Shown: positions 7,128-32,349, numbered from the stretch's first letter. The stretch is 51,173 bases of DNA from Eubacteriales bacterium (GCA_045580105.1 JAZNNH010000043.1:1-51173); one strand, 5' to 3'. Notes: generated by a model not told the origin, from the letters alone. Numbers and translations: made by a program.

Positions 7128-8837
7128 ATGCTTGCCAATCTTTTCGTGACCGATCTTGCCCTCATCCGACACCTTTCGGTGGATTTTCATGCGGGCTTTT
7201 CGGTGCTGACCGGTCAAACCGGTGCAGGAAAAAGTTTGATTTTAGATGCGCTCAATTTGTTTTTAGAGCAAAAGGGCGCAAAGGAATTGGTGCGCGAAGG
7301 GGCACCGAAACTGGAGGTTTCCCTCTTTTTTGATGAAATTTCACCCGATACGGCACGCCTTCTCTCCGATTATTTTTGCGAGGAGGACGTGGCGGAGGGC
7401 ATCACGCTGATGCGGCAAGTGACCTCCGACGGAAAGAGCACCTGCAAAATCGGTGGGCGCACGGTTCCGTTTTCGCAGTTAAAGAGCGTGGCGCAGCATC
7501 TTTTGTCCATTCAAGGGCAAAACGCCGCCGGTGCTTTGCTCGACGAGAAGAATCACCGTGGGTATTTGGACAGCGCTCTGTCTGATGCCGATCAGCAGGT
7601 TTTGGAAGAATACCGCGCGCTTTATCGCGACTGGGTCAAAGAAAAAAACGCCCTGCAGCAAATGAAAGAAACGGCATCTTCCGGAAAAGAGAAGCTTGCG
7701 CTTTTGGACTTTCAGATGAAAGAAATTGAAAAAGTCAAGCCGAAACGCGGCGAAGAGGAAGCGCTGGAGGCGCGCCTTTCGGCGTTGAAAAATTCCGAAA
7801 AAATCCACGCCGCGCTGTACACCGCCGACCGTGCGCTCTCGGGCGGAGAAAAGGGAAGAGGGGCGGTGTTCCTCTTGGAGGCGGCGGCAGGAAAATTAGA
7901 AACGCTGGGAGAGCCGGACCCCGATTTTGCGCTTGCGGGCGAGCTGTATGAAATTTCCCGTCGGGTCAAGGAGATGGCAGGGGAAGTGTCCTACCGTCTT
8001 TCGCAGGTGGGCGAAGAAGATCCGGCTACCCTTGTGGATAAGATCCAGCGCAGATTGGATCTGCTTTACAAGCTAAAACTCAAATACGGCAGTACCGTAG
8101 AGGAAGTGATTTCCTACTACGAGTCGATAAAACAGCAAAAAGACTTGACGATGACCTTGAAAGATGATATAAAAAGAGCGACCGAGCAGCTTTCCGCGCT
8201 CGAACACAAGGTCAAAGAGGTCGGCGCGAAGCTGACGCGGGCAAGAAAGACGCTGGCAAGGGCGCTGGAAGAAGAGATCGGCTCGGTGCTGACGTTTTTG
8301 GATATGCCCCAAACCCGATTTTTTGTTCAGCTATCCCCGACCGAACCGGGTCCGGAGGGGCTGGAGAGTGTGTCGTTTGCCATTTCTCCGAACCTCGGCG
8401 AGGGCACAAAGCCCTTGGCTCAAATCGCGTCCGGCGGTGAGAGCAGCCGAATTATGCTGGCGCTTCACTTGAAACTGGGACGGGCGAAGGATGCGGACAC
8501 AATGGTCTTTGACGAGGTGGATACGGGAATTTCCGGTGCGACCGCACAAAAGATCGCCTTGGCACTCAAAAAACTGTCGCAGCGCAAGCAGGTTTTGTGT
8601 GTGACGCATTCGGCGCAGGTTTCCACGCTTTCCGACCACCACTATCTGGTGGAAAAAAGCCAAGAAGACGGCAGAACCCAAACTCGGCTGTTTTGTTTGG
8701 ACGAAGAGGGACGGCTTTTGGAAAACGCCCGCTTATTTGCCGGCGCGACCCTGACGCAGGAAGCCAAGAGCGCCGCGGAGGATCTGAGGAGACAAGGGCT
8801 GCGAGAATATGAAAAATGGAAGGATACGATCCTTTGA
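7128..8837 (+). CDS. recN: DNA repair protein RecN
   Basis: Walker A GQTGAGKS, long coiled coil, signature ASGGESSRIMLAL, Walker B MVFDEVDTGISG. Confidence 0.95.
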   Translation: MLANLFVTDLALIRHLSVDFHAGFSVLTGQTGAGKSLILDALNLFLEQKGAKELVREGAPKLEVSLFFDEISPDTARLLSDYFCEEDVAEGITLMRQVTSDGKSTCKIGGRTVPFSQLKSVAQHLLSIQGQNAAGALLDEKNHRGYLDSALSDADQQVLEEYRALYRDWVKEKNALQQMKETASSGKEKLALLDFQMKEIEKVKPKRGEEEALEARLSALKNSEKIHAALYTADRALSGGEKGRGAVFLLEAAAGKLETLGEPDPDFALAGELYEISRRVKEMAGEVSYRLSQVGEEDPATLVDKIQRRLDLLYKLKLKYGSTVEEVISYYESIKQQKDLTMTLKDDIKRATEQLSALEHKVKEVGAKLTRARKTLARALEEEIGSVLTFLDMPQTRFFVQLSPTEPGPEGLESVSFAISPNLGEGTKPLAQIASGGESSRIMLALHLKLGRAKDADTMVFDEVDTGISGATAQKIALALKKLSQRKQVLCVTHSAQVSTLSDHHYLVEKSQEDGRTQTRLFCLDEEGRLLENARLFAGATLTQEAKSAAEDLRRQGLREYEKWKDTIL

Positions 8838-8858: not shown

Positions 8859-10079
8859 ATGGAAATTTATGAAGAACTTCAAAAACGCGGATTGATCGCG
8901 CAGGTGACGGACGAAAAGGAGATTCGTGAACTGCTCAACTCCGGCGGAGCTCGTTTTTACATCGGTTTTGACCCCACTGCCGATTCGCTTCACTGCGGCC
9001 ACTTTATGGCACTTTGCCTGATGAAGCGTTTGCAGATGGCAGGCAATAAGCCCGTTGTTTTGCTGGGCGGCGGTACGGGATATATCGGTGACCCCTCCGG
9101 CAGAACAGATATGCGATCCATGCTCACGCCCGAGACCATCGAGCACAACTGTCAGTGCTTCAAGAAGCAGATGGAACGCTTCATTGAATTCGGTGACGAC
9201 AAGGCAATTATGGTGAACAACGCCGATTGGCTCTTGAAGCTCAATTACGTGGAGCTTCTTCGCGAGGTGGGCGCGTGCTTTTCCGTGAACAATATGCTTC
9301 GTGCCGAGTGCTACAAGCAAAGAATGGAAAAGGGCTTGTCTTTCCTCGAATTCAACTATATGATTATGCAGTCCTACGACTTCTATCACCTGTCCAAGGA
9401 ATACGGCTGTAATATGCAGTTCGGCGGCGACGATCAGTGGTCGAATATGCTGGGCGGTACGGAGCTGATCCGCAAGAAGACCGGCAAGGACGCCTATGCG
9501 ATGACCATTACCCTGCTTCTCAACTCCGAGGGTAAGAAAATGGGTAAGACCCAGTCCGGTGCGGTTTGGCTTGATCCCGAAAAAACCTCGCCCTTTGACT
9601 TTTATCAGTATTGGAGAAACGTGGCGGATGCGGACGTACTCAAGTGCATCCGTATGCTCACCTTCCTGCCTTTGGAAGAAATCGAAAAGATGGAATCTTG
9701 GGAGGGAAGCCAGCTTAACGTTGCCAAGGATATTCTCGCCTATGAATTGACCTTGCTCGTTCACGGCGAGGAAGAAGCGAAAAAGGCAAGAGAAGCGTCC
9801 AAGGCGCTGTTCGGCGGTTCGGGCTCGAACGCCAATATGCCCAGCTTCGCTCTGACGGATGCAGATTTCACCGACGGCGCCATCAACGTGATGGATCTGA
9901 TGGTGAAAGCCGGTCTTTGCCCCTCTAAGGGCGAAGCCAGACGTTTGGTTCAGCAGGGCGGTGTTTCCGTGAACGATGAAAAGATCACCGATATTGCCAA
10001 AACCTTCGACAGCGCACAGTTCGACTCCGAATTCATCCTGCGCAAGGGCAAGAAAGTCTTTATTAAGATTACGAAATAA
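8859..10079 (+). CDS. tyrS: tyrosine--tRNA ligase
   Basis: HIGH-type HCGH, KMSKS-type KMGKT, C-terminal S4 domain; only 21 nt after recN. Confidence 0.95.
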   Translation: MEIYEELQKRGLIAQVTDEKEIRELLNSGGARFYIGFDPTADSLHCGHFMALCLMKRLQMAGNKPVVLLGGGTGYIGDPSGRTDMRSMLTPETIEHNCQCFKKQMERFIEFGDDKAIMVNNADWLLKLNYVELLREVGACFSVNNMLRAECYKQRMEKGLSFLEFNYMIMQSYDFYHLSKEYGCNMQFGGDDQWSNMLGGTELIRKKTGKDAYAMTITLLLNSEGKKMGKTQSGAVWLDPEKTSPFDFYQYWRNVADADVLKCIRMLTFLPLEEIEKMESWEGSQLNVAKDILAYELTLLVHGEEEAKKAREASKALFGGSGSNANMPSFALTDADFTDGAINVMDLMVKAGLCPSKGEARRLVQQGGVSVNDEKITDIAKTFDSAQFDSEFILRKGKKVFIKITK

Positions 10080-10093
10080 TATTTTAGATATAT

Positions 10094-10296
10094 GCAGGGC
10101 TGCCGCCCCGCAGTTACTTTCTTTGAAAAAAAGTAACCAAAGAAACTTTCCGAATAAAAAGAAAAGGACTGGTATTTCCAGTCCTTTTTTCTTTTTATAT
10201 TGATCTATTACAGTTTTCTTTGTCACACTTTCTTTTTGAAAAGAAAGTGTGGGTTGAAGTTTTCTTTGCCTACTTTCTTTTTCAAAAGAAAGTAGG
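10094..10296 (+). repeat. modular palindromic repeat element, copy A (GC-rich head, inverted L unit, terminator module, two R hairpin units)
   Basis: gcagggctgccgccccgcag; L hairpin 10113-10137 plus caaagaaactttc; terminator 10162-10190; R hairpins 10224-10251 and 10269-10296, each preceded by agttttctttg. Confidence 0.85.
10162..10190. terminator. bidirectional intrinsic terminator carried inside repeat copy A
   Basis: A-run, GGACTGG-tattt-CCAGTCC, T6; sits between convergent tyrS and cysE. Confidence 0.75.
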
Positions 10297-11139
10297 TTAG
10301 TTTTGAGGGGGCGTGTAGTAGAGCGTTTTGCCGGCTTCCACGGAGCGGGTCAGCCAAACGGACGCGCCGATCACACAGCCGTCGCCCACGGTGGTGTCAC
10401 CGCCCAAAATGGTCGCGTTGGCGTAGATAATGACGTGGTTTCCGATATTGGGATGGCGCTTGAGATCCTTGATGGGATGACCGTTTTCATCCAGCTCGAA
10501 GCTCTTCGCACCCAGCGTCACACCCTGATAGAGCTTAACGTGGTCGCCGATCACGCAGGTTTCGCCCACAACGATACCGGTTCCGTGGTCAATGAAGAAA
10601 TACTCGCCGATGGTCGCACCCGCGTGAATATCGACACCCGTTTTTTCGTGTGCGTATTCGGTCATAATACGGGGGATCATGGGGATTTTGAGGGTGTAAA
10701 GCTCGTGCGCCAGTCGGTAAATGGAAATGGCGTAAAAGCCGGGGTAGCAAAGAAGAACTTCCTCGTGGCTCTTGGCGGCAGGGTCGCCTTGATAAATCGC
10801 TTCGATGTCCTTCATGAGAAGGGTTTTGATGTGAGGAAGCGTTTCCAAAAACGCGGCAGCGCTGATTTTTGCATCCGGCGCATCGGTCTGAAGGCGCGAC
10901 GCTTTTTCGATCAGCGTAATCAGTTCGTTTTCAATTTTTCGCAGTAGGGAAAGAGAGCTCAGTCCTTCCTGCGTGACGGAACGGCTCTTAAAATAGCCCG
11001 GGAATAAGAGGGATTGCAGATCTTTAATCAGATCGACCACTTCTTTTCGATTGGGCAAAAGCACGTCGCACTCTGCCTGCGCAATCTTGCTTTCCTTTCC
11101 GATTTGATCCAATCGGCTTTGAATGTCTTCCAGGTTCAT
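10297..11139 (-). CDS. cysE: serine O-acetyltransferase (long form)
   Basis: hexapeptide-repeat C-terminal half DIHAGATIGEYFFIDHGTGIVVGETCVIGDHVKLYQGVTLGA. Confidence 0.85.
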   Translation of the reverse strand: MNLEDIQSRLDQIGKESKIAQAECDVLLPNRKEVVDLIKDLQSLLFPGYFKSRSVTQEGLSSLSLLRKIENELITLIEKASRLQTDAPDAKISAAAFLETLPHIKTLLMKDIEAIYQGDPAAKSHEEVLLCYPGFYAISIYRLAHELYTLKIPMIPRIMTEYAHEKTGVDIHAGATIGEYFFIDHGTGIVVGETCVIGDHVKLYQGVTLGAKSFELDENGHPIKDLKRHPNIGNHVIIYANATILGGDTTVGDGCVIGASVWLTRSVEAGKTLYYTPPQN

Positions 11140-12512: not shown

Positions 12513-12750
12513 GATATAAAACACGAGGAAGAAGACAAGTACCTCTTCGACTTTTTTGCAAGAGAGCTGCCGGTTGGTGCAAGGCAGTCGAAAAGAGAGG
12601 AGGGAATACCCTTTGGAGTGGCTTTTCCGAAACAAAGTAGGAAAAGACGGGTGCGCCCGATACTGCGCTTTGAGACTGTCCTATGACAGTGAATATGAGG
12701 TGGTACCACGATTCTGTCGTCCTTGTGCTTATAGCTCAAGGGCGTTTTTT
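12513..12750 (+). promoter_or_regulatory. T-box riboswitch leader, probable Tyr (UAC) specifier
   Basis: AGUA 12538-12541; AGAGAG bulge 12561-12566; distal loop GGUUGGUGCAA 12572-12582; GAA-UAC 12604-12609; K-turn halves 12522-12529 and 12615-12620; T-box sequence AAUAUGAGGUGGUACCACG 12692-12710; terminator CGUCCUUG/CAAGGGCG plus U6 at 12718-12750. Confidence 0.85.
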
Positions 12751-20076: not shown

Positions 20077-20293
20077 GCAGGGCTGCCGCCCCGCACCCTG
20101 CAGTTCCTTTCTTTGGAAAGATGGGAACCAAAGAAACTTTCATAATAAAAAGTAAAAAAAGGACTGATTATTTCAGTCCTTTTTATTATTTTTATATTTC
20201 CCCATTCGAGTTTTTCTTTGCTTACTTTCTTTTTTCAAAAAGAAAGTAAGAAGCTTTCTTTGGCTTACCTTTCTTTTCCAAAAGAAAGGTAAG
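20077..20293 (+). repeat. modular palindromic repeat element, copy B
   Basis: head hairpin gcaggg...ccctgc 20077-20101; L hairpin 20103-20128 plus caaagaaactttc; terminator GGACTGA-ttatt-TCAGTCC 20161-20184; R hairpins 20221-20250 and 20264-20293. Confidence 0.85.
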
Positions 20294-20977
20294 TTATTCT
20301 TGGGGCTCCTGCACGGGCGATTGCGTCGGAACGTGGCTTAAGAGAGCGCCGTATTCAAAGAGATAAGACAGCGCAAAGAGAACAAAGCCCCAGAGAATGG
20401 TTTCGAGATTCACGTTGGTTTCCCCGAGAAGAAGCGTGCCTTTGCCGTGTGTCAAAAGAGCAATGAGTGTGGAGCAAACCGCGGGCGCACCGGCAAGGAA
20501 AAAGAGGGAAATGCCGGCACATTTGAGGTCCTTTGCCGCCTGAGAGGTAAAGGGAGAAAGCTGGGCTTCTTTGATGGAAGCGGCAACGCGGGAAAGGTAG
20601 CGATAGAAGAAAAAGAGAACGATCATTTCGGCAAACGTGGGAATGATCGACAGCGCCAAGGTGTGGTTTTCGGCGGACGCGATGGGCGTTTCCTCAACGA
20701 TACGAAATCCGTTTTCGGTCACTTCCAAGCCCTCGGTCTCTTGCCCGGAAAGCGATTGTTTTACCTCGTCAAACGCCTCTCCGACAAGGGCGCGAAGATC
20801 AAATTCCATATCGACCTTCGTTTCGGTGCGGAAGACAACCGTGTCCCGCGGCAAAAACGAAAGCGATAAAACGCCGATGAAAATGCCGACGGCACCGATG
20901 ATGCACAGCACCTTCAAAATGGAAAAAACCACTTGGCAGGCAGAGGCAACGGAACGAATGAATTTGGTTTTGTTCAT
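20294..20977 (-). CDS. membrane protein, DUF2975-like
   Basis: N-terminal TM, about 3 C-terminal TMs, LSPFTSQAAKDLK resembles the DUF2975 PFT motif; SD aaaggag before MNKTKF. Confidence 0.55.
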   Translation of the reverse strand: MNKTKFIRSVASACQVVFSILKVLCIIGAVGIFIGVLSLSFLPRDTVVFRTETKVDMEFDLRALVGEAFDEVKQSLSGQETEGLEVTENGFRIVEETPIASAENHTLALSIIPTFAEMIVLFFFYRYLSRVAASIKEAQLSPFTSQAAKDLKCAGISLFFLAGAPAVCSTLIALLTHGKGTLLLGETNVNLETILWGFVLFALSYLFEYGALLSHVPTQSPVQEPQE

Positions 20978-21084
20978 AAAAAACTCCTTTCTCACGGTAA
21001 CGGATACGTTTGGTATCCTGTTTATCGGACACCTGTTTTGTTATGATGAACTTGCAAACAAACGAAACAGGAGATTTTACGAAA

Positions 21085-23572: not shown

Positions 23573-25264
23573 ATGGCTAAAAAATACAAATTTTTACCTT
23601 ACAATGAAGTATCCAAGATTGATCGAATTTGCGATATTCTGACGCAAGCGGAGGCAGAGTGTCCGGAGAAGATTGCCTATCGGCACAAAAACGCCAAGCA
23701 AGAAGTTTTGGACGTAACGTTCCGCGAATTCGGTGTAGACGTGCGAGCACTGGGAAGCGCCCTTTCGGATTTGGGAGTAGACTGTGAGCACATCGCCTGC
23801 GTGGCGGATAACAGTTACAACTGGATCAACGTATATCTTTCCGTTCTTTGCTCTCGCGGTGTGTACCTGCCGGTGGATAAGCTCTTGCCTCCCGAAGATA
23901 TGATGTATGTTCTTACCTCGGGTGATGCCAAGGTGATTTTCTATTCCAAGCAGTTTGAAACCCTGTTCCACGAAAAGGAAGAAGAGCTTTCCGAGGTCAA
24001 ATACTTTATCGGATTCGACCGCGAAGAAGACGAGGGAAAATTTCTTTCCTTTGCCCGGCTCAAAGAAAAAGGCAAAGAGCTTTTGGCGTCCGGCTACGAC
24101 GTTTACACTTCGAATATGACCTCGTCTGACATCAAGGCGCTGAAAATGTTGGTTTACACCTCCGGTACGACCGGCATTGCAAAAGGTGTTATGCTCTCGG
24201 AAGAGAACTTGGTTTGTGAAGTATACCACGGCTTGCAGGTGGCAGACGTTTTGACGGTCGGTCTTTCCGTGTTGCCGTATCACCACACCTATGAAGCGGT
24301 GGTTGGAATTTTGGTGTACTTGCACCGCCACGCGGTCACCTGTATCAACGACAGTCTTGCCGCGATCCTGAAGAACTTTAAAATCTATCAGCCGGACTTC
24401 ATTTATCTCGTGCCCGCGTTCCTGGAAATGTTCTACAAAAAGATTCGTGCGACTATGGAAGAGCAGGGCAAGTGGGAAACCTTCCAAAAGGGCGCTAAAA
24501 TTTCAAAATTCCTTTTGAAATTCGGCATTGACATACGCAGAAAGCTTTTTGCTCAGCTCCACGAAACCTTCGGCGGAAAATTGGAACTGATGGTTGTGGG
24601 AGCCGCGCCCCTTCGTCCGGAAGTCATCAATTTCTTTGAAACCGTCGGTATCACCGTTTGTCAGGGCTACGGTATTACTGAATGCTCTCCTCTGGTGAGT
24701 GTAAACCGAAACAATAAATACGCCGATCCCGAAACCGTAGGTCTGCCTCTGCCTTGTCTTGAGGTTCGCATTGACAATCCCGGAGAAGACGGAAACGGCG
24801 AGATTTGCGTTCGCGGAAAAACGGTCATGATGGGCTATTACAAAAATCCCGAAGTGACCGAAAAGGCAATGGTCGACGGCTGGTTCCACACCGGTGACTT
24901 GGGTCACATTGATGAAAGAGGATATCTTTCCATCACGGGCCGTTGCAAGAACCTGATCGTTTTGGATAACGGAAAGAACGTATACCCCGAAGAACTTGAA
25001 AACTACATTATGAATATCCCTTACATTGCGGAAGCTGTGGTAAAGGGGGAAAAAGAAGAAAGCGGAAAAACCGTGGTTGTGGCAGAGGTCTTCCTTTCCA
25101 AGGATCACGTGAAGGAAATGGGCAAATCGCCCGACGAGGCAAAAATTCTTGCCGATATCCGCGCACTGACCGGTGAACTTCCGATGTACAAGCAGGTGAC
25201 CCGTGTTGTCATTCGCGAAAACGAATTTGAGAAAACCACCACCCGCAAGATCAAGAGAACTTAA
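23573..25264 (+). CDS. long-chain acyl-CoA synthetase (AMP-forming)
   Basis: YTSGTTGIAKGVMLS, GYGITECSP, GWFHTGDLG, TRKIKR; start trimmed to MAKKYKF behind SD aaaaggag. Confidence 0.85.
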   Translation: MAKKYKFLPYNEVSKIDRICDILTQAEAECPEKIAYRHKNAKQEVLDVTFREFGVDVRALGSALSDLGVDCEHIACVADNSYNWINVYLSVLCSRGVYLPVDKLLPPEDMMYVLTSGDAKVIFYSKQFETLFHEKEEELSEVKYFIGFDREEDEGKFLSFARLKEKGKELLASGYDVYTSNMTSSDIKALKMLVYTSGTTGIAKGVMLSEENLVCEVYHGLQVADVLTVGLSVLPYHHTYEAVVGILVYLHRHAVTCINDSLAAILKNFKIYQPDFIYLVPAFLEMFYKKIRATMEEQGKWETFQKGAKISKFLLKFGIDIRRKLFAQLHETFGGKLELMVVGAAPLRPEVINFFETVGITVCQGYGITECSPLVSVNRNNKYADPETVGLPLPCLEVRIDNPGEDGNGEICVRGKTVMMGYYKNPEVTEKAMVDGWFHTGDLGHIDERGYLSITGRCKNLIVLDNGKNVYPEELENYIMNIPYIAEAVVKGEKEESGKTVVVAEVFLSKDHVKEMGKSPDEAKILADIRALTGELPMYKQVTRVVIRENEFEKTTTRKIKRT

Positions 25265-25270
25265 GCTTAC

Positions 25271-25447
25271 TTGGAACCTTTTGAAAAAGGTTCCAAACCT
25301 CCAAAACGTTCCTTTCTTTGAAAAGAAAGGAACCAAAGAAACTTTCCGAAAGGAAGAACAAAAAAGGACTGATTTTTCAGTCCTTTTTTATTATATTACC
25401 CATTACAAAGTTTTCTTTGGCTTACCTTTCTTTTGAAAAAAGGTAAG
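25271..25447 (+). repeat. modular palindromic repeat element, copy C
   Basis: 26-nt perfect palindrome 25271-25296; L hairpin 25308-25333 plus caaagaaactttc; terminator GGACTGA-tttt-TCAGTCC-T6 25366-25389; R hairpin 25421-25447. Confidence 0.85.
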
Positions 25448-26701
25448 TTATTTATTATAAATTCGCTCGATTTTGGTGAAGCCGTCTTCCATCAGCCGAT
25501 CAATTTGGAATTTGGCATTCTTTTTCAAAGGAAGAACGGTGACGGTGTTGCCCTCGGCACGCAGGGCTGCTGCCTGATCGAAGATCTCTTGCATCTTTTC
25601 CGCCGAAGCACCGGTTTCGACCAAGAATGCGATGCCCTCTTTGGCGTCCTCGTTTTTGACGGGGTGATCGCGAAGAATGGTGATAATGCGTTCAAATCCG
25701 ATGGAAAAACCGCAGGCAGGAACTTTTTGACCGGAGAATTTTCCGATCATTTCGTCGTATCTGCCGCCGCCGGCAATGGAAAAGTTGTATTCGTCCAGTT
25801 TCACTTCGAAAATCGTTCCCGTGTAATAGCCCATACCGCGCACGAGGGTCGGATCAAATTTTAAGGTCACGTTTTCACCCAGCGATTTTCTCACACAGGA
25901 AAGAATGGTATCCAGTCCGCTCGGAACGGACGGGGAGAGAAGCTCTTCCGGAAGCTTGGCACAGAAATCGGCAACACAGGGGGCATTGTTTTCAAAGAGT
26001 GCAAGATAGGAATCCACCGCTGTTTCTTCCAGACCCAGCGAAAGAAGCTCGGCTTTCACGCCCTCGACACCGATTTTGTCGAGTTTATCCAAAATAATGA
26101 AGACTTCTTCCAAAACCTCTTCGGAAAAGCCGGCAGACAGAGCCATCGCGCGCAAGATGCGGCGGTCGTTTACGTGAATGGTGATGTTTTCGATTCCCGT
26201 TCCGGCAAGAAGTTTGGAGAGCATATTACCGGTTGCGCCCACCAATTCAATTTCTGCCAAAATGGAGGCATCTCCGAGAATATCAATATCGCATTGGGTA
26301 AACTGACGGAATCTGCCTTTTTGGGGCTGATCGGCGCGCCATACGTTGCCGATCTGAAGTGCCTTGAAAGGCGCGGGGAGGGTGGCGCTGTTGGCGGCGT
26401 AGAAGCGGGACAGCGGCAGGGTCAGATCATAGCGCATGCCCGAATCGGCAAGATCGGAACCGGTTTCCAGCGCACGGGAAAGAGCCGCACCGCGTTTGAG
26501 CACCTTAAAGATCAGCTTTTCGTTTTCGCCGCCCTGTTTTCCGGTCAGGTTTTCGATGTGCTCCATACAAGGCGTTTCAATTTCGCGGAAGCCGTAGGAA
26601 GAATAGGTACTGCGAATTTTTGCCAATACACTCTGACGCAGTGCCATCTCCTGAGGTAAAAAGTCGTTCATTCCCTTCACAGGGGTCTTTACAAATCCCA
26701 T
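25448..26701 (-). CDS. hisS: histidine--tRNA ligase
   Basis: class II motifs, e.g. VWRADQPQKGRFRQFTQCDID and GGGRYD. Confidence 0.95.
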   Translation of the reverse strand: MGFVKTPVKGMNDFLPQEMALRQSVLAKIRSTYSSYGFREIETPCMEHIENLTGKQGGENEKLIFKVLKRGAALSRALETGSDLADSGMRYDLTLPLSRFYAANSATLPAPFKALQIGNVWRADQPQKGRFRQFTQCDIDILGDASILAEIELVGATGNMLSKLLAGTGIENITIHVNDRRILRAMALSAGFSEEVLEEVFIILDKLDKIGVEGVKAELLSLGLEETAVDSYLALFENNAPCVADFCAKLPEELLSPSVPSGLDTILSCVRKSLGENVTLKFDPTLVRGMGYYTGTIFEVKLDEYNFSIAGGGRYDEMIGKFSGQKVPACGFSIGFERIITILRDHPVKNEDAKEGIAFLVETGASAEKMQEIFDQAAALRAEGNTVTVLPLKKNAKFQIDRLMEDGFTKIERIYNK

Positions 26702-27445: not shown

Positions 27446-27682
27446 CACACCCCATTAGAGTTTTTGTAAACTTGTGAGGAAACACCCCATTACAGTTTTC
27501 TTTGTCAAACTTTCTTTTTTAAAAGAAAGTTTGAAGCTTTTCTTTGCTTACTTTCTTTAAATGATTGTGGGGAAGCACTTCCAGTTTAGCTTTTCTTTGC
27601 TTACTTTCTTTAAATGATTGTGGGGAAGCACTTCCAGTTTAGTTTTTCTTTGCTTACTTTCTTTTTTCAAAAAGAAAGTAAG
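27446..27682 (+). repeat. modular palindromic repeat element, copy D (no terminator module; contains a 53-nt tandem duplication)
   Basis: acaccccatta[g/c]agtttt twice (27447, 27482); R hairpin 27505-27534; perfect 53-nt copies at 27537-27589 and 27590-27642; R hairpin 27653-27682. Confidence 0.9.
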
Positions 27683-27699
27683 GAGAAAGGAATGAGGTT

Positions 27700-28707
27700 A
27701 TGTCAAAATCTTTTGTGCCGGAAGGATACGTCAACCGCTTGGGCGCGTACGATACCCAAGCCGCCATCAGTGTATTGCGCCGCCGATTCGAAAAGAATCT
27801 GGCATCGGCGTTGAATTTGAAGCGCGTTTCCGCGCCCTTGTTTGTCGATCCCAATACCGGCTTGAACGACGATTTGAACGGACACGAGCGTCCGGTTCGC
27901 TTTGATATTAAAGAAACGGGCTCCGATGCGGTGGTGGTCCACTCTCTTGCCAAGTGGAAGAGAATGGCCTTGCACAAATACGCATTCCCCGTAGGCGAGG
28001 GTCTTTATACGGATATGAACGCCATTCGTCGCGACGAAGAAATGGACAATTTGCATTCCATTTACGTAGACCAATGGGATTGGGAAAAGGTCATTTCGGA
28101 AGGCGATCGCACCCAAGAGTATCTGAAAAAGACCGTCGGCGCGATCGTTGCCGCCGTGTGCGATACGCAAGACGAGGTCAAGAGCTTGTATCCTTCCTTG
28201 AAGACCACGCTTTGCCGCAAGGTCAAATTCGTAACCGGTCAGGAACTGGAGGATCGCTATCCGGATTTGAGCTCCAAAGAGCGGGAAAATGCAATTTGCC
28301 GTGAGTATAAGACTGTATTTATCATGCAGATCGGGGATAAACTCAAAAGCGGAAAGCCGCACGACGGCAGAGCCCCCGACTACGACGATTGGTCGCTGAA
28401 CGGAGATCTTCTGTTCTGGGACGAGGTGCTGGGACTTGCACTGGAAATTTCTTCGATGGGAATCCGCGTTTCCCCGCAATCTCTCGTGGAGCAGCTGGAA
28501 AAAGCCGGTTGCCCCGAACGCGCCAATTTAATCTTTCACCGTCAACTGATCGACGGTACGCTGCCTTTGACGATGGGAGGCGGAATCGGTCAGTCGCGGC
28601 TTTGCTTGCTTCTTTTGGAAAAGTGCCACGTCGGCGAAGTGCAGGTTTCGCTCTGGGATGAAAAAACCGAAGAGATCTGTCGCCGCGGCGGTGTGAATTT
28701 GCTTTAA
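27700..28707 (+). CDS. asnA: aspartate--ammonia ligase (asparagine synthetase A)
   Basis: 335 aa; N-terminus and LNLKRVSAPLFV... and IYVDQWDWEKV are typical AsnA. Confidence 0.9.
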   Translation: MSKSFVPEGYVNRLGAYDTQAAISVLRRRFEKNLASALNLKRVSAPLFVDPNTGLNDDLNGHERPVRFDIKETGSDAVVVHSLAKWKRMALHKYAFPVGEGLYTDMNAIRRDEEMDNLHSIYVDQWDWEKVISEGDRTQEYLKKTVGAIVAAVCDTQDEVKSLYPSLKTTLCRKVKFVTGQELEDRYPDLSSKERENAICREYKTVFIMQIGDKLKSGKPHDGRAPDYDDWSLNGDLLFWDEVLGLALEISSMGIRVSPQSLVEQLEKAGCPERANLIFHRQLIDGTLPLTMGGGIGQSRLCLLLLEKCHVGEVQVSLWDEKTEEICRRGGVNLL

Positions 28708-30974: not shown

Positions 30975-31203
30975 ACAAAAAAGGACTGATTTTTTCAGTC
31001 CTTTTTTTGCACCTTTTTGAAAAAAGGAGCAAACCCCAAAAACTTTCGGAATGGAAAACAAATCATTCTCTATTACCGTTTTCTTTGTCACACTTTCTTT
31101 TCCAAAGGAAAGTGTGGTTTGAAGTTTTCTTTGAATTTGTTGTGGAGGGCACGTTCAGTATAGTTTTCTTTGGCTTACCTTTCTTTTTCAAAAGAAAGGT
31201 AAG
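30975..31203 (+). repeat. modular palindromic repeat element, copy E (module order permuted: terminator first)
   Basis: terminator GGACTGA-ttttt-TCAGTCC-T7 30983-31008; palindrome 31009-31030; ccaaaaactttc; R hairpin 31089-31116; hairpin-less unit 31121-31163; R hairpin 31174-31203. Confidence 0.85.
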
Positions 31204-32349
31204 TTATTCTTTTGATTCTTCTTCCTGCGGGGGTTGAAGCTTCGCTTCGCGCGCTCGCACGTCACGGCGGAGAATGCGGTAGAGTGCCGCGGCAAAGGGG
31301 ACACCGAGTAGCATTCCCACAACGCCAAACATACCGCCGCCGATCGTGACCGCCGCCAAGACCCAAAAGCCGGGCAGCCCCAGAGAAGTTCCTACTACCT
31401 TGGGATAGATAAAATTGCCTTCGATTTGCTGAAGAATAATGAGGAAAACAAGGAAGATCAGGGCTTTGAGGGGAGATACGGTCAGAATCATAAAAGCACC
31501 GACCGCCGCACCGATGTAAGCCCCTGCAATGGGAATGAGTGCGGTGAACGCAATGAGTGCGGAAATCATACCGGCATAGGGCAGGCGAAGAATGAGCATA
31601 CCCGCGGCGCACAGAACGCCTAAAATGACCGCCTCGAGGCACTGTCCCACAATGTACTTGTGAAACGATTCATTCAAGACGGACAGAAGATAGGTAATCG
31701 TTCCGTTCCACGTTTTCGGCAGGTACGTAGCAAAGAGGCGAGAAAACTGCCGTTTGAGCTGTTTGCGGGAAAGGAGAATGTAAAGGGCGAAAATGAAGCT
31801 GAGCAGTCCCGTTACCACACCGGAAATGAGCCCTGCGACCGTGGTAATGACCATATTAACCACGCCACTGACCCCGCTTGTTACCATATTGATCAGATCG
31901 CCGATGCGGCTCTTCCAGTCAATGGCAGACAGCCGGTTGAACACGTCGTCGGACAGGAGATTGTGTTCCTCCAGCAAAGCAAGAAGCTTGCTGATCGCAC
32001 CGGGCAAAAGATCGAGGATCAACTGCACGCAAGAGATCAGCTGCGGCACGATCAAGCCGATGATCAGGCCAACGACAGCAAACACCGAAAGAACGGACAA
32101 AACCAGACAAAGCGGGAGTTTGATTTTCAAAAGCCACCTCTTTTTGCACTTGGCAAACAAAACCCGCTGGTAGAAATCCATCGGAAGCGCGAGAATATAC
32201 GCAAGACCGGCACCGATGAAAAGGGGTAGAGCGGCGGACATGACCGCGCCGAGAAACGAGAATACCGTCGGCCAGAAATGAATGGCAAGATAGAGGAGAA
32301 AAACAGAAACGCCAACGGTCAGGCAAAATTTTATTTCCTTTTGTTTCAT
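31204..32349 (-). CDS. AI-2E family transporter (PerM/UPF0118)
   Basis: 381 aa, about 8 TM; IPIAGAYIGA and QQIEGNFIYPKVVG motifs. Confidence 0.85.
   Translation of the reverse strand: MKQKEIKFCLTVGVSVFLLYLAIHFWPTVFSFLGAVMSAALPLFIGAGLAYILALPMDFYQRVLFAKCKKRWLLKIKLPLCLVLSVLSVFAVVGLIIGLIVPQLISCVQLILDLLPGAISKLLALLEEHNLLSDDVFNRLSAIDWKSRIGDLINMVTSGVSGVVNMVITTVAGLISGVVTGLLSFIFALYILLSRKQLKRQFSRLFATYLPKTWNGTITYLLSVLNESFHKYIVGQCLEAVILGVLCAAGMLILRLPYAGMISALIAFTALIPIAGAYIGAAVGAFMILTVSPLKALIFLVFLIILQQIEGNFIYPKVVGTSLGLPGFWVLAAVTIGGGMFGVVGMLLGVPFAAALYRILRRDVRAREAKLQPPQEEESKE

Follow-up and report, generated by a model that had tools for sequence, protein, structure and literature searches.

Repeats of the class formed by the repetitive extragenic palindromic (REP) sequences and the bacterial interspersed mosaic elements (BIMEs) have been studied in depth in Proteobacteria and scarcely in uncultured gut Clostridia. 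According to the portion of PMC12306157 drawn on here (citing Liang et al. 2015), a large share of the REPs of Escherichia coli lie 1-20 nt past a stop codon, and at less than 16 nt they stall the ribosome during termination and reduce translation. In addition, REPs shield 3' ends from exonucleases, as given in the same portion of PMC12306157. In low-GC Firmicutes, AT-rich stable stem-loops near stop codons are described as typical in the part of Petrillo et al. (2006, PMC1590033) used here. In the present study, a hairpin was analyzed in a 51,173-nt stretch of DNA from a Eubacteriales bacterium (GCA_045580105.1, JAZNNH010000043.1; hereafter the window), where it closes the right side of intergenic arrays (the R hairpin) and adjoins the stop codon of the convergent gene. 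This hairpin is the unit next to the gene, a perfect palindrome, in a mosaic intergenic repeat that is uncatalogued, confined to one genus and REP/BIME- or BOX-like; its junction is set by where the reading frame ends and not by a TTA target.

Junctions of the Terminal Hairpins in the Window

The last R hairpin had been described in the first-pass annotation as abutting the TAA of the convergent minus-strand gene with zero spacing in 4 of 4 cases. The sequence and the open reading frame (ORF) list bore this out at all four junctions, which comprised the following features:

10269..10296, minus strand: terminal palindrome of the CCTAC type with a stem of 13 bp, abutting TAA 10297-10299 of the cysE-like (hexapeptide-transferase) gene.
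20264..20293, minus strand: terminal palindrome of the CTTACC type with a stem of 14 bp and a loop of 2 nt, abutting the stop of ORF 20294..20995.
20294..20296, minus strand: TAA stop of ORF 20294..20995, taken from the ORF list; no Pfam family at 1e-5.
25421..25447, minus strand: shortened terminal palindrome of the CTTACC type (stem of 12 bp when folded as RNA), abutting hisS TAA 25448-25450.
31174..31203, minus strand: terminal palindromic unit, CTTACC type, flush with TAA 31204-31206 of an AI-2E family transporter gene.

On the plus strand, the palindromes ended in ...GAAAGTAGG (10296/10297), ...GAAAGGTAAG (20293/20294 and 31203/31204) and ...AAGGTAAG (25447/25448), and TTA followed each time. 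The first three bases past the palindrome were thus the reverse complement of TAA at each of the four convergent ORFs (10297..11139, 280 aa; 20294..20995, 233 aa; 25448..26701, 417 aa; 31204..32349, 381 aa). The stems were 13-14 bp long, or 12 bp in the shortened hisS copy, and in the RNA fold of the minus strand the first paired base adjoined UAA, with no spacing. The count of 4 of 4 applied to the arrays that face a convergent gene; it did not extend to the fifth array of the window, which faces the start of asnA.

Two of the gene names given earlier were confirmed by Pfam matches, namely HisRS at 25451-26701 for hisS and AI-2E_transport at 31207-32349 for the AI-2E permease. A Hexapep match at 10300-11139 fits the name cysE, but identity as cysE is unproven, and the label DUF2975-like was dropped for ORF 20297-20995, which matched no Pfam family at E<=1e-5. 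The 31203/31204 junction was bridged without difference by one contig of a public sequencing run, probably from the source sample. Lookalike joints in runs X2, X5 and X6 belonged to other organisms, with less than 95% likeness, and identical short contigs came from X1 only.

Frequency of Flush Junctions

The window is contig C43 of the source genome (G000), a 1.38-Mb assembly of 89 contigs that is 80.7% complete. All genomes compared were metagenome-assembled genomes (MAGs), ORFs were called by length with no gene finder, and the survey was seeded by exact sequence patterns, so that diverged units escape it. The survey, which took in the flanks of each pattern match in the relatives, gave 132 distinct family hairpins in loci from 11 genomes, 99 of which were main-type terminal units with at least 150 nt of flank. 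Among these 99, 57 faced a convergent ORF within 150 nt: 30 at a distance of 0, 6 at 1-10 nt and 21 at 11-150 nt. The remaining terminal hairpins lay within 40 nt of a co-directional start (20), 41-150 nt before a start (6) or where no ORF was called (16).

The chance level was taken from the first non-family perfect hairpin past the stop of 995 G000 ORFs of at least 150 aa, and 6 of the 214 ordinary hairpins that started between -12 and +30 of a stop began at exactly 0. Compared with this rate, the 30 flush cases among 57 gave p=1.8e-31. For G000 itself, all stop-facing cases were flush, both in the automatically detected set (7/7, p=1.4e-11) and after curation (9/9, p=1.1e-14); curation added the hisS copy, missed for its shortened arm, and C1:9335, scored at 3 with its outer three pairs mismatched.

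Variable spacing to neighbouring stops, which the first-pass annotation had named as evidence against its observation, was found in part: 27 of the 57 convergent cases were not flush, mostly with another module in between. In most of the 21 distant cases, as judged by eye, the gap was filled by a recognisable module that itself lay near the stop. The filler was an ordinary terminator in some cases (33 nt, in G012 and G017) and the module of about 20 nt, CGCAGCCGATTTTACAAAG, in others.

Stop Codons and Bases at the Junction

The flush stops were 23 TAA, 6 TGA and 1 TAG, compared with 18:10.2:1.8 expected from the G000 usage of 597:339:59 (chi-square p=0.18). Accordingly, the junction triplets were TTA (23), TCA (6) and CTA (1); bases beyond the stop were not conserved, and there was no fixed tetra- or pentanucleotide. 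The last sense codon was AAA at the flush TAA in 10 of 23 cases versus 85 of 609 (14%) genome-wide, a figure inflated by orthologs that are not independent. This enrichment could come from a target preference or from selection.

Ancestral Stops and Recurrence at Orthologous Genes

The HisRS of G000 ended in ...RIYNK, and its length was kept in the orthologs of 15 of 19 genomes (mostly ending in ...IYND), with unrelated DNA downstream. The cysE-like protein ended in ...YYTPPQN; G010 had an identical end without a hairpin, and the G004 ortholog ended in ...PPQT with a CCTAC hairpin that was likewise flush. Because the hisS and cysE stops keep their ortholog positions, the repeat does not supply the stop but begins after an ancestral one. 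One locus of another form was seen at C35:7311-7360 of G000, where the last 13 coding bases and the TGA of gene 7341..8108 are identical to the 5' arm and loop of a hairpin, and a complete hairpin follows directly. The protein of this gene ends in ...LLSF, and its orthologs end in ...LLSL or ...LLNL; this end looks like half a unit taken into the reading frame.

The 30 flush cases represented 22 orthogroups. Six orthogroups were flush in two to three species, and three of these carried differing, fully paired stems. One had CTTCC in G002, CCGCC in G003 and CTTAC in G012, with no hairpin at the G000 ortholog; tyrS had CTTCC in G002 and CCTAC in G014, and in G000 it was followed instead by 14 nt and other modules; a third had CTTACC in G000 and CCTAC in G014. 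The cysE gene had the same CCTAC stem in G000 and G004, and two further genes were likewise CCTAC in both species.

Gene order around these sites was not constant. The tyrS and cysE-like genes (window 8859-11139) were convergent in G000 and G002 and co-directional in G014 and, by the reported strands, in G009, with family repeats in the gap. Furthermore, gene order downstream of hisS differed in nearly every genome of the genus.

Pairing of the Stems

The pairing test used 38 aligned units, with 13 pairs and 494 cells. Of the stem cells, 99.4% were paired, 4 of the 13 pairs changed on both sides, and none of 500 shuffles reached the covariation score. The outer stem variants were complementary in every case. 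Since few stem variants are common to many loci, the stem changes represent few independent events.

Anatomy of the Repeat

On the plus strand, the unit consisted of GTTTTCTTTG followed by a palindrome of 22-36 nt. Within the flank, TTTCTTTG was invariant in 38 of 38 aligned units. The inner stem of the palindrome was fixed (CTTTCTTTT/AAAAGAAAG) and the outer 4-6 pairs varied, as CTTAC(C), CCTAC, CACAC and TCAAAC, to which the relatives add CTTCC, CCCAC, CTGAC, CCGCC and CCACC. The centres of the palindromes were 0-4 nt long. All palindromes were intergenic, lying between ORFs. Read in the sense of the convergent-gene mRNA, the order was stop, hairpin and CAAAGAAAAC in all 20 junctions printed. 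The other features of the window arrays were as follows:

20221..20250, minus strand: second palindromic unit, CTTAC type, of the array at 20264..20293; GTTTTTCTTTG precedes it on the plus strand.
10224..10251, minus strand: inner unit of the cysE array, a palindrome of the CACAC type.
31089..31116, minus strand: inner palindromic unit, CACAC type, with one T-G position, of the AI-2E array.
About 27503-27682, plus strand: fifth array, made of a palindromic unit, two non-palindromic 53-nt units and a palindromic unit at 27653-27682, then GAGAAAGG and the asnA ATG (27700).
25360..25389: shared bidirectional terminator AAAAAAGGACTGA...TCAGTCCTTTTTT; its stem recurs at 10162-10188, 20156-20184 and 30977-31007.
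25308..25345, plus strand: left-side (L) unit, palindrome GTTCC...GGAAC then CAAAGAAAC, 43 nt from stop 25262-25264, not flush.
10094..10149, plus strand: GC-rich module GCAGGGCTGCCGCCCCGC, L-side palindrome and CAAAGAAAC, 14 nt past the tyrS stop (10077-10079), not flush.

The units of each array all pointed the same way and recurred in direct tandem every 38-53 nt or so, and the opposite orientation occurred only across the central terminator. Inner units may lack the 3' arm and carry a different short hairpin in its place; the gene-adjacent unit was palindromic. The L units (palindrome plus CAAAGAAAC) and the R units (GTTTTCTTTG plus palindrome) were inverted about the shared terminator, and the borders of a single mobile unit were not definable. 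The bidirectional terminator itself belongs to the mosaic family, because its stem GGACTGA/TCAGTCC recurs at 9 loci of the genome. Other recurring modules of the intergenic regions were a GC-rich module (5 loci) and a GGAACC-type hairpin (8 loci). Among units of the same polarity, loop dinucleotides occurred in both orientations (TC/GA, CC/GG), and a change in T-run length went together with one in A-run length; both look like flip-flop, as expected if palindromes are copied or repaired in hairpin form.

Several known signals were looked for in the arrays. In the mRNA sense, the hairpin was followed by CAAAGAAAAC and not by a T run, and a simple terminator scan of the opposite strand passed just one of the four flush hairpins, 10268-10297. 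A simple promoter scan called none before the arrays. No conserved read-through extension past the stop was found by inspection; in CCTAC units the frame runs for 4 codons before it closes, and it varies with the length of the T run. A whole-window cmscan against Rfam at the gathering score gave no family on the repeats, its sole match being a T-box leader (RF00230, 132 bits) at 12517-12727 on the plus strand. A full-text literature search for the repeat motif strings returned chance primer matches only.

Copies at Gene Starts and Promoters

In copies facing a gene start, a purine-rich ribosome-binding sequence lay directly past the last paired base, with no TTA. For instance, the junctions read GTAAG/GAGAAAGG at asnA, GTA/AGGAGG at mfd and GTAGG/AGAAAGG in G014 and G017. 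Units ending at a ribosome-binding site were also seen at window 27653-27702 (asnA) and, in G000, at C69:5072-5111 and C34:8444-8482 (mfd and another gene). In the relatives, the AGAAAGG past the hairpin repeats the 3' arm of the hairpin itself, as if the arm were the binding site.

The spacing from hairpin to -35 hexamer was 0-5 nt overall, again with no TTA (GGAAG/TTGACA in G017 and GTAGG/TTGCAA in G014, for example). Four terminal hairpins stood only 0-1 nt before the hexamer (G017 C260:205-260, G014 C119:560-635, G016 C101:5000-5061 and G000 C34:28424-28490); the hexamers were TTGACA, TTGCAA, TTGACT and TTGAAA, with a TATAAT-like box at 17 nt.

Distribution across Genomes

The stricter unit pattern was present in G000 and in 8 of the 19 other genomes of the genus, and the looser pattern in 13 of 20. 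No match to the stricter pattern was obtained in 21 genomes searched from other genera of the family and order, and a reversed control pattern gave 0 as well. The relatives were uncultured Eubacteriales or Clostridia MAGs from guts. G000 itself carried 31 units. All 31 were on 17 contigs with a G+C of at least 0.50 (299 kb) and none on the 72 contigs below 0.50 (1,085 kb); six repeat-bearing contigs clustered in tetranucleotide space. A gene on the low-G+C contig C2 had G004 (85%) and G010 (84%) as nearest relatives, the same relatives and identity as hisS, and a gene on contig C36 had G010 first at 67%. A chimeric bin behind this confinement was unsupported, since C2 and hisS share their nearest relatives; two close strains are possible, as is a regional clustering of the units within G000. 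A metagenome scan with a pattern for the C-terminal coding end of cysE gave at least 117 stretches, and CysE was found by tblastn at none of 80 loci.

Candidate enzymes and binding proteins were searched by Pfam family. The Y1 transposase (PF01797) was not found in the element-rich G000 (80.7% complete), G016 (90%) or G009 (92%), and was present in G008, G004 and G018, all three without a match to the stricter pattern. At the 4 loci read out of 33 PF01797 matches, no family hairpin stood beside the Y1 gene. The IS110 transposase (PF01548) was absent from all 20 genomes, and Hfq (PF17209), a candidate reader of the A-rich CAAAGAAAAC, from all 5 element-rich genomes. The transposase absences are weak evidence, because the assemblies are incomplete MAGs.

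Possible Function of the Flush Hairpin

The junction tracks the frame and not the sequence, recurs at orthologs and keeps its pairing, which indicates a constraint at the gene end. Starting from the observed position, spacing statistics, polarity, ancestral stops, ortholog recurrence and maintained pairing, we infer that the hairpin would be transcribed within the 3' untranslated region (UTR) and may affect mRNA stability or translation. The layout of the mRNA would be the stop codon, a 12-15-bp stem-loop, the conserved CAAAGAAAAC, further units of about 45 nt (none to several) and the shared bidirectional terminator. With a stop codon in the A site, a 13-14-bp stem that starts at +1 is largely inside the mRNA channel of the ribosome. 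A spacing of zero would maximise the coupling to the ribosome for this reason. By analogy with the REPs of E. coli, we tentatively read the hairpin as a selected RNA 3' stem-loop within the footprint of the terminating ribosome, at somewhat less than an even chance. Such a stem-loop may block 3'-to-5' exonucleases; as it would lie wholly within the stretch opened by the terminating ribosome, it could also tie termination to the fate of the mRNA or to protein yield. Selection for a stop-proximal 3' stem-loop, one of two explanations offered in the first-pass annotation, is compatible with the ancestral stops, the recurrence at orthologs and the pairs changed on both sides.

A number of results weigh against this. 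In the 38-unit alignment, no stem pair changed on one side only, and G-U pairs were nearly absent with no strand bias (7 vs 4; 14 mismatched on both strands), so the stems resemble palindromes kept at the DNA level, or a few subfamilies that have spread, more than they resemble RNA stems that evolved in place. The hairpin was missing in 19 of 20 hisS and 17 of 19 cysE orthologs of sister species. The unit also stood directly before ribosome-binding sites (20/99) and -35 boxes in a polarity opposite to transcription; a role in the 3' UTR leaves those copies unexplained. Every flush hairpin places a C right after the stop, a rare context that follows 117 of 995 stops in G000 and is the weakest termination context in E. 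coli. Moreover, if function only requires a distance of up to about 15 nt, a spacing of exactly 0 does not follow from that alone. Finally, among the public sequencing runs matched to the stretch, one, probably the source sample, contained half of its sequence words and the others small shares, and none of those listed was an RNA run.

The recurrence of one border rule at several kinds of site suggests another explanation, a selfish and boundary-limited spread. The repeat would multiply by copy-paste, tandem expansion or an enzyme that reads the hairpin and not the target, selection would purge the copies that damage genes, and arrays would stop at the next signal, leaving the hairpin without a role. 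A single rule would then cover the 30 flush stops, the 20 co-directional starts within 40 nt and the -35 boxes 0-5 nt away. Repeated modules tile whole intergenic regions and leave no free spacer. The perfect Watson-Crick stems fall into few subfamilies common to loci and genomes, presence at the same stop differs between species, and the repeat is patchy within the genus (8/19 other genomes) and absent from the other genera searched (0/21). We nevertheless consider this spread rather unlikely. Random insertion followed by selection predicts spacings from 0 upwards, whereas a spike at 0, few cases at 1-10 nt and modules beyond were seen. Flushness at orthologs of species with 76-85% HisRS identity needs repeated exact hits or long-term maintenance. 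No target duplication was visible at the composite borders of the G000 loci inspected; that at 25262-25450 had TAA and GCTTAC on the left flank and TTA on the right, and other left borders were 3-14 nt from a stop, behind the GC-rich module. Neither PF01797 nor PF01548 tracks the repeat, a weak objection as MAGs often lose such genes.

The palindromes could also act at the DNA level, as duplex or cruciform sites that a dimeric protein or a recombinase binds or cuts, and mark the borders of gene inversion or exchange in the manner of cassettes. Their perfect symmetry, the centres of 0-4 nt, the lack of a wobble bias and the loop dinucleotides found both ways round at one polarity are in agreement with this, and so are the inversion of cysE relative to tyrS between species and the variable gene order past hisS. 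However, a dimeric binder would conserve its half-site, and stem positions 2-4 vary freely provided that they pair. Homologous recombination alone predicts rearrangement at dispersed repeats, and one would hardly expect cassettes to consist of housekeeping genes, among them hisS, tyrS, cysE and asnA. No recombinase was identified, although tyrosine and serine recombinases were not searched for. Taken together, a DNA-level site appears improbable.

A variant of the RNA reading takes the stem as a termination-coupled device. The purine arm AGAAAGG resembles a Shine-Dalgarno sequence and the pyrimidine arm CCTTTCT resembles the tail of 16S rRNA. The arms CCUUUCU.../...AGAAAGG would accordingly mimic the duplex of the two, which each stopping ribosome would melt; the freed purine arm and CAAAGAAAAC would hold the ribosome or recruit a factor, so that each termination sets the fate of the mRNA. 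Because every terminating ribosome would melt the duplex, the position would be exact to the nucleotide at any stop and across species. The 16S rRNA 3' end was unassembled in G000, and 6 of the 7 GGATCACCTCCTT matches in relatives were read, all of them non-rRNA. We regard this device as a long shot.

Hardly any weight can be given to the remaining proposal, also made in the first-pass annotation, of an IS200/IS605-like element or one driven by a REP-associated tyrosine transposase (RAYT) that inserts beside a fixed TTA/TAA target. In its favour, the build of GTTTTCTTTG plus hairpin is reminiscent of REP and IS200/IS605 ends, most flush stops are TAA (23/30) and AAA-TAA is enriched (an ortholog-inflated figure). 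Against it, 7 of the 30 flush junctions are TGA or TAG in a stop mix that fits the background, the ribosome-binding-site and -35 junctions have no TTA, Y1 was not found in the incomplete G000, G016 and G009 and is abundant in G008, G004 and G018, which gave no match to the stricter pattern, and a three-base target could not on its own pick in-frame stops among the many TAA and TGA triplets of the AT-rich spacers, so that junction data and absences together leave it with little support and largely refuted.

Comparison with Known Systems

The natural variation of the repeat provides a series for the effects of stop-adjacent stem-loops on termination and decay: spacings of 0, of 3-8 nt and behind a module, the same gene with and without the hairpin, and copies before ribosome-binding sites. 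For annotation, a 3' UTR in these genomes can begin with a repeat, and contigs or gene order may break at arrays. Should the junction prove to be set by a mobility mechanism that locates gene ends whatever their sequence, such a mechanism would be novel in its own right.

Compared with the REP/BIME sequences of Enterobacteria and Pseudomonas, which are associated with RAYTs, the repeat is alike in its short extragenic palindromes, conserved flank, mosaic clusters and location at gene 3' ends. REPs carry a GT[AG]G head at their 5' foot. The head here is the 10-mer GTTTTCTTTG, with no GTAG or GTGG. The units form direct tandems with a period of about 45 nt, whereas REP/BIME units alternate in orientation, and the stems pair perfectly and are AT-rich. 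A search with PF01797 gave no RAYT in the incomplete G000, G016 and G009. Furthermore, the copy number, 31 units in the 1.38-Mb G000, is below that of classical REP hosts, and more than half of the stop-facing copies are exactly flush. Of four testable features of REP membership, the many-copy extragenic palindrome was thus present, and the head motif, the RAYT and the alternating orientation were not.

The BOX element of Streptococcus pneumoniae, built as boxA-boxB(n)-boxC, is likewise a modular Firmicute intergenic repeat with a unit of about 45 nt in variable number and a strong predicted structure, a likeness by general description and not by sequence comparison; BOX elements are not known to start at a stop codon. 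The mycobacterial interspersed repetitive units (MIRUs) of Mycobacterium tuberculosis contain small ORFs that overlap the codons of their neighbours and give translational coupling inside operons. They resemble the present repeat as tandem intergenic units of 40-100 bp whose ends are codon-exact to flanking stop and start codons. However, the units described here have no conserved ORF and lie mostly between convergent genes.

The stem-loops in the part of Petrillo et al. (PMC1590033) used here are also stable, AT-rich, near stops and enriched between convergent genes, but they are treated there as individual A-tract/T-tract terminators and not as a sequence family. Unlike the terminators of low-GC Firmicutes, the present hairpin is followed by a separate shared terminator, and one of the four flush hairpins is terminator-like, on the opposite strand only. 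Therefore, the repeat is best filed as an uncatalogued addition to the extragenic palindromic mosaic repeats, with an unusually strict relation to gene borders.

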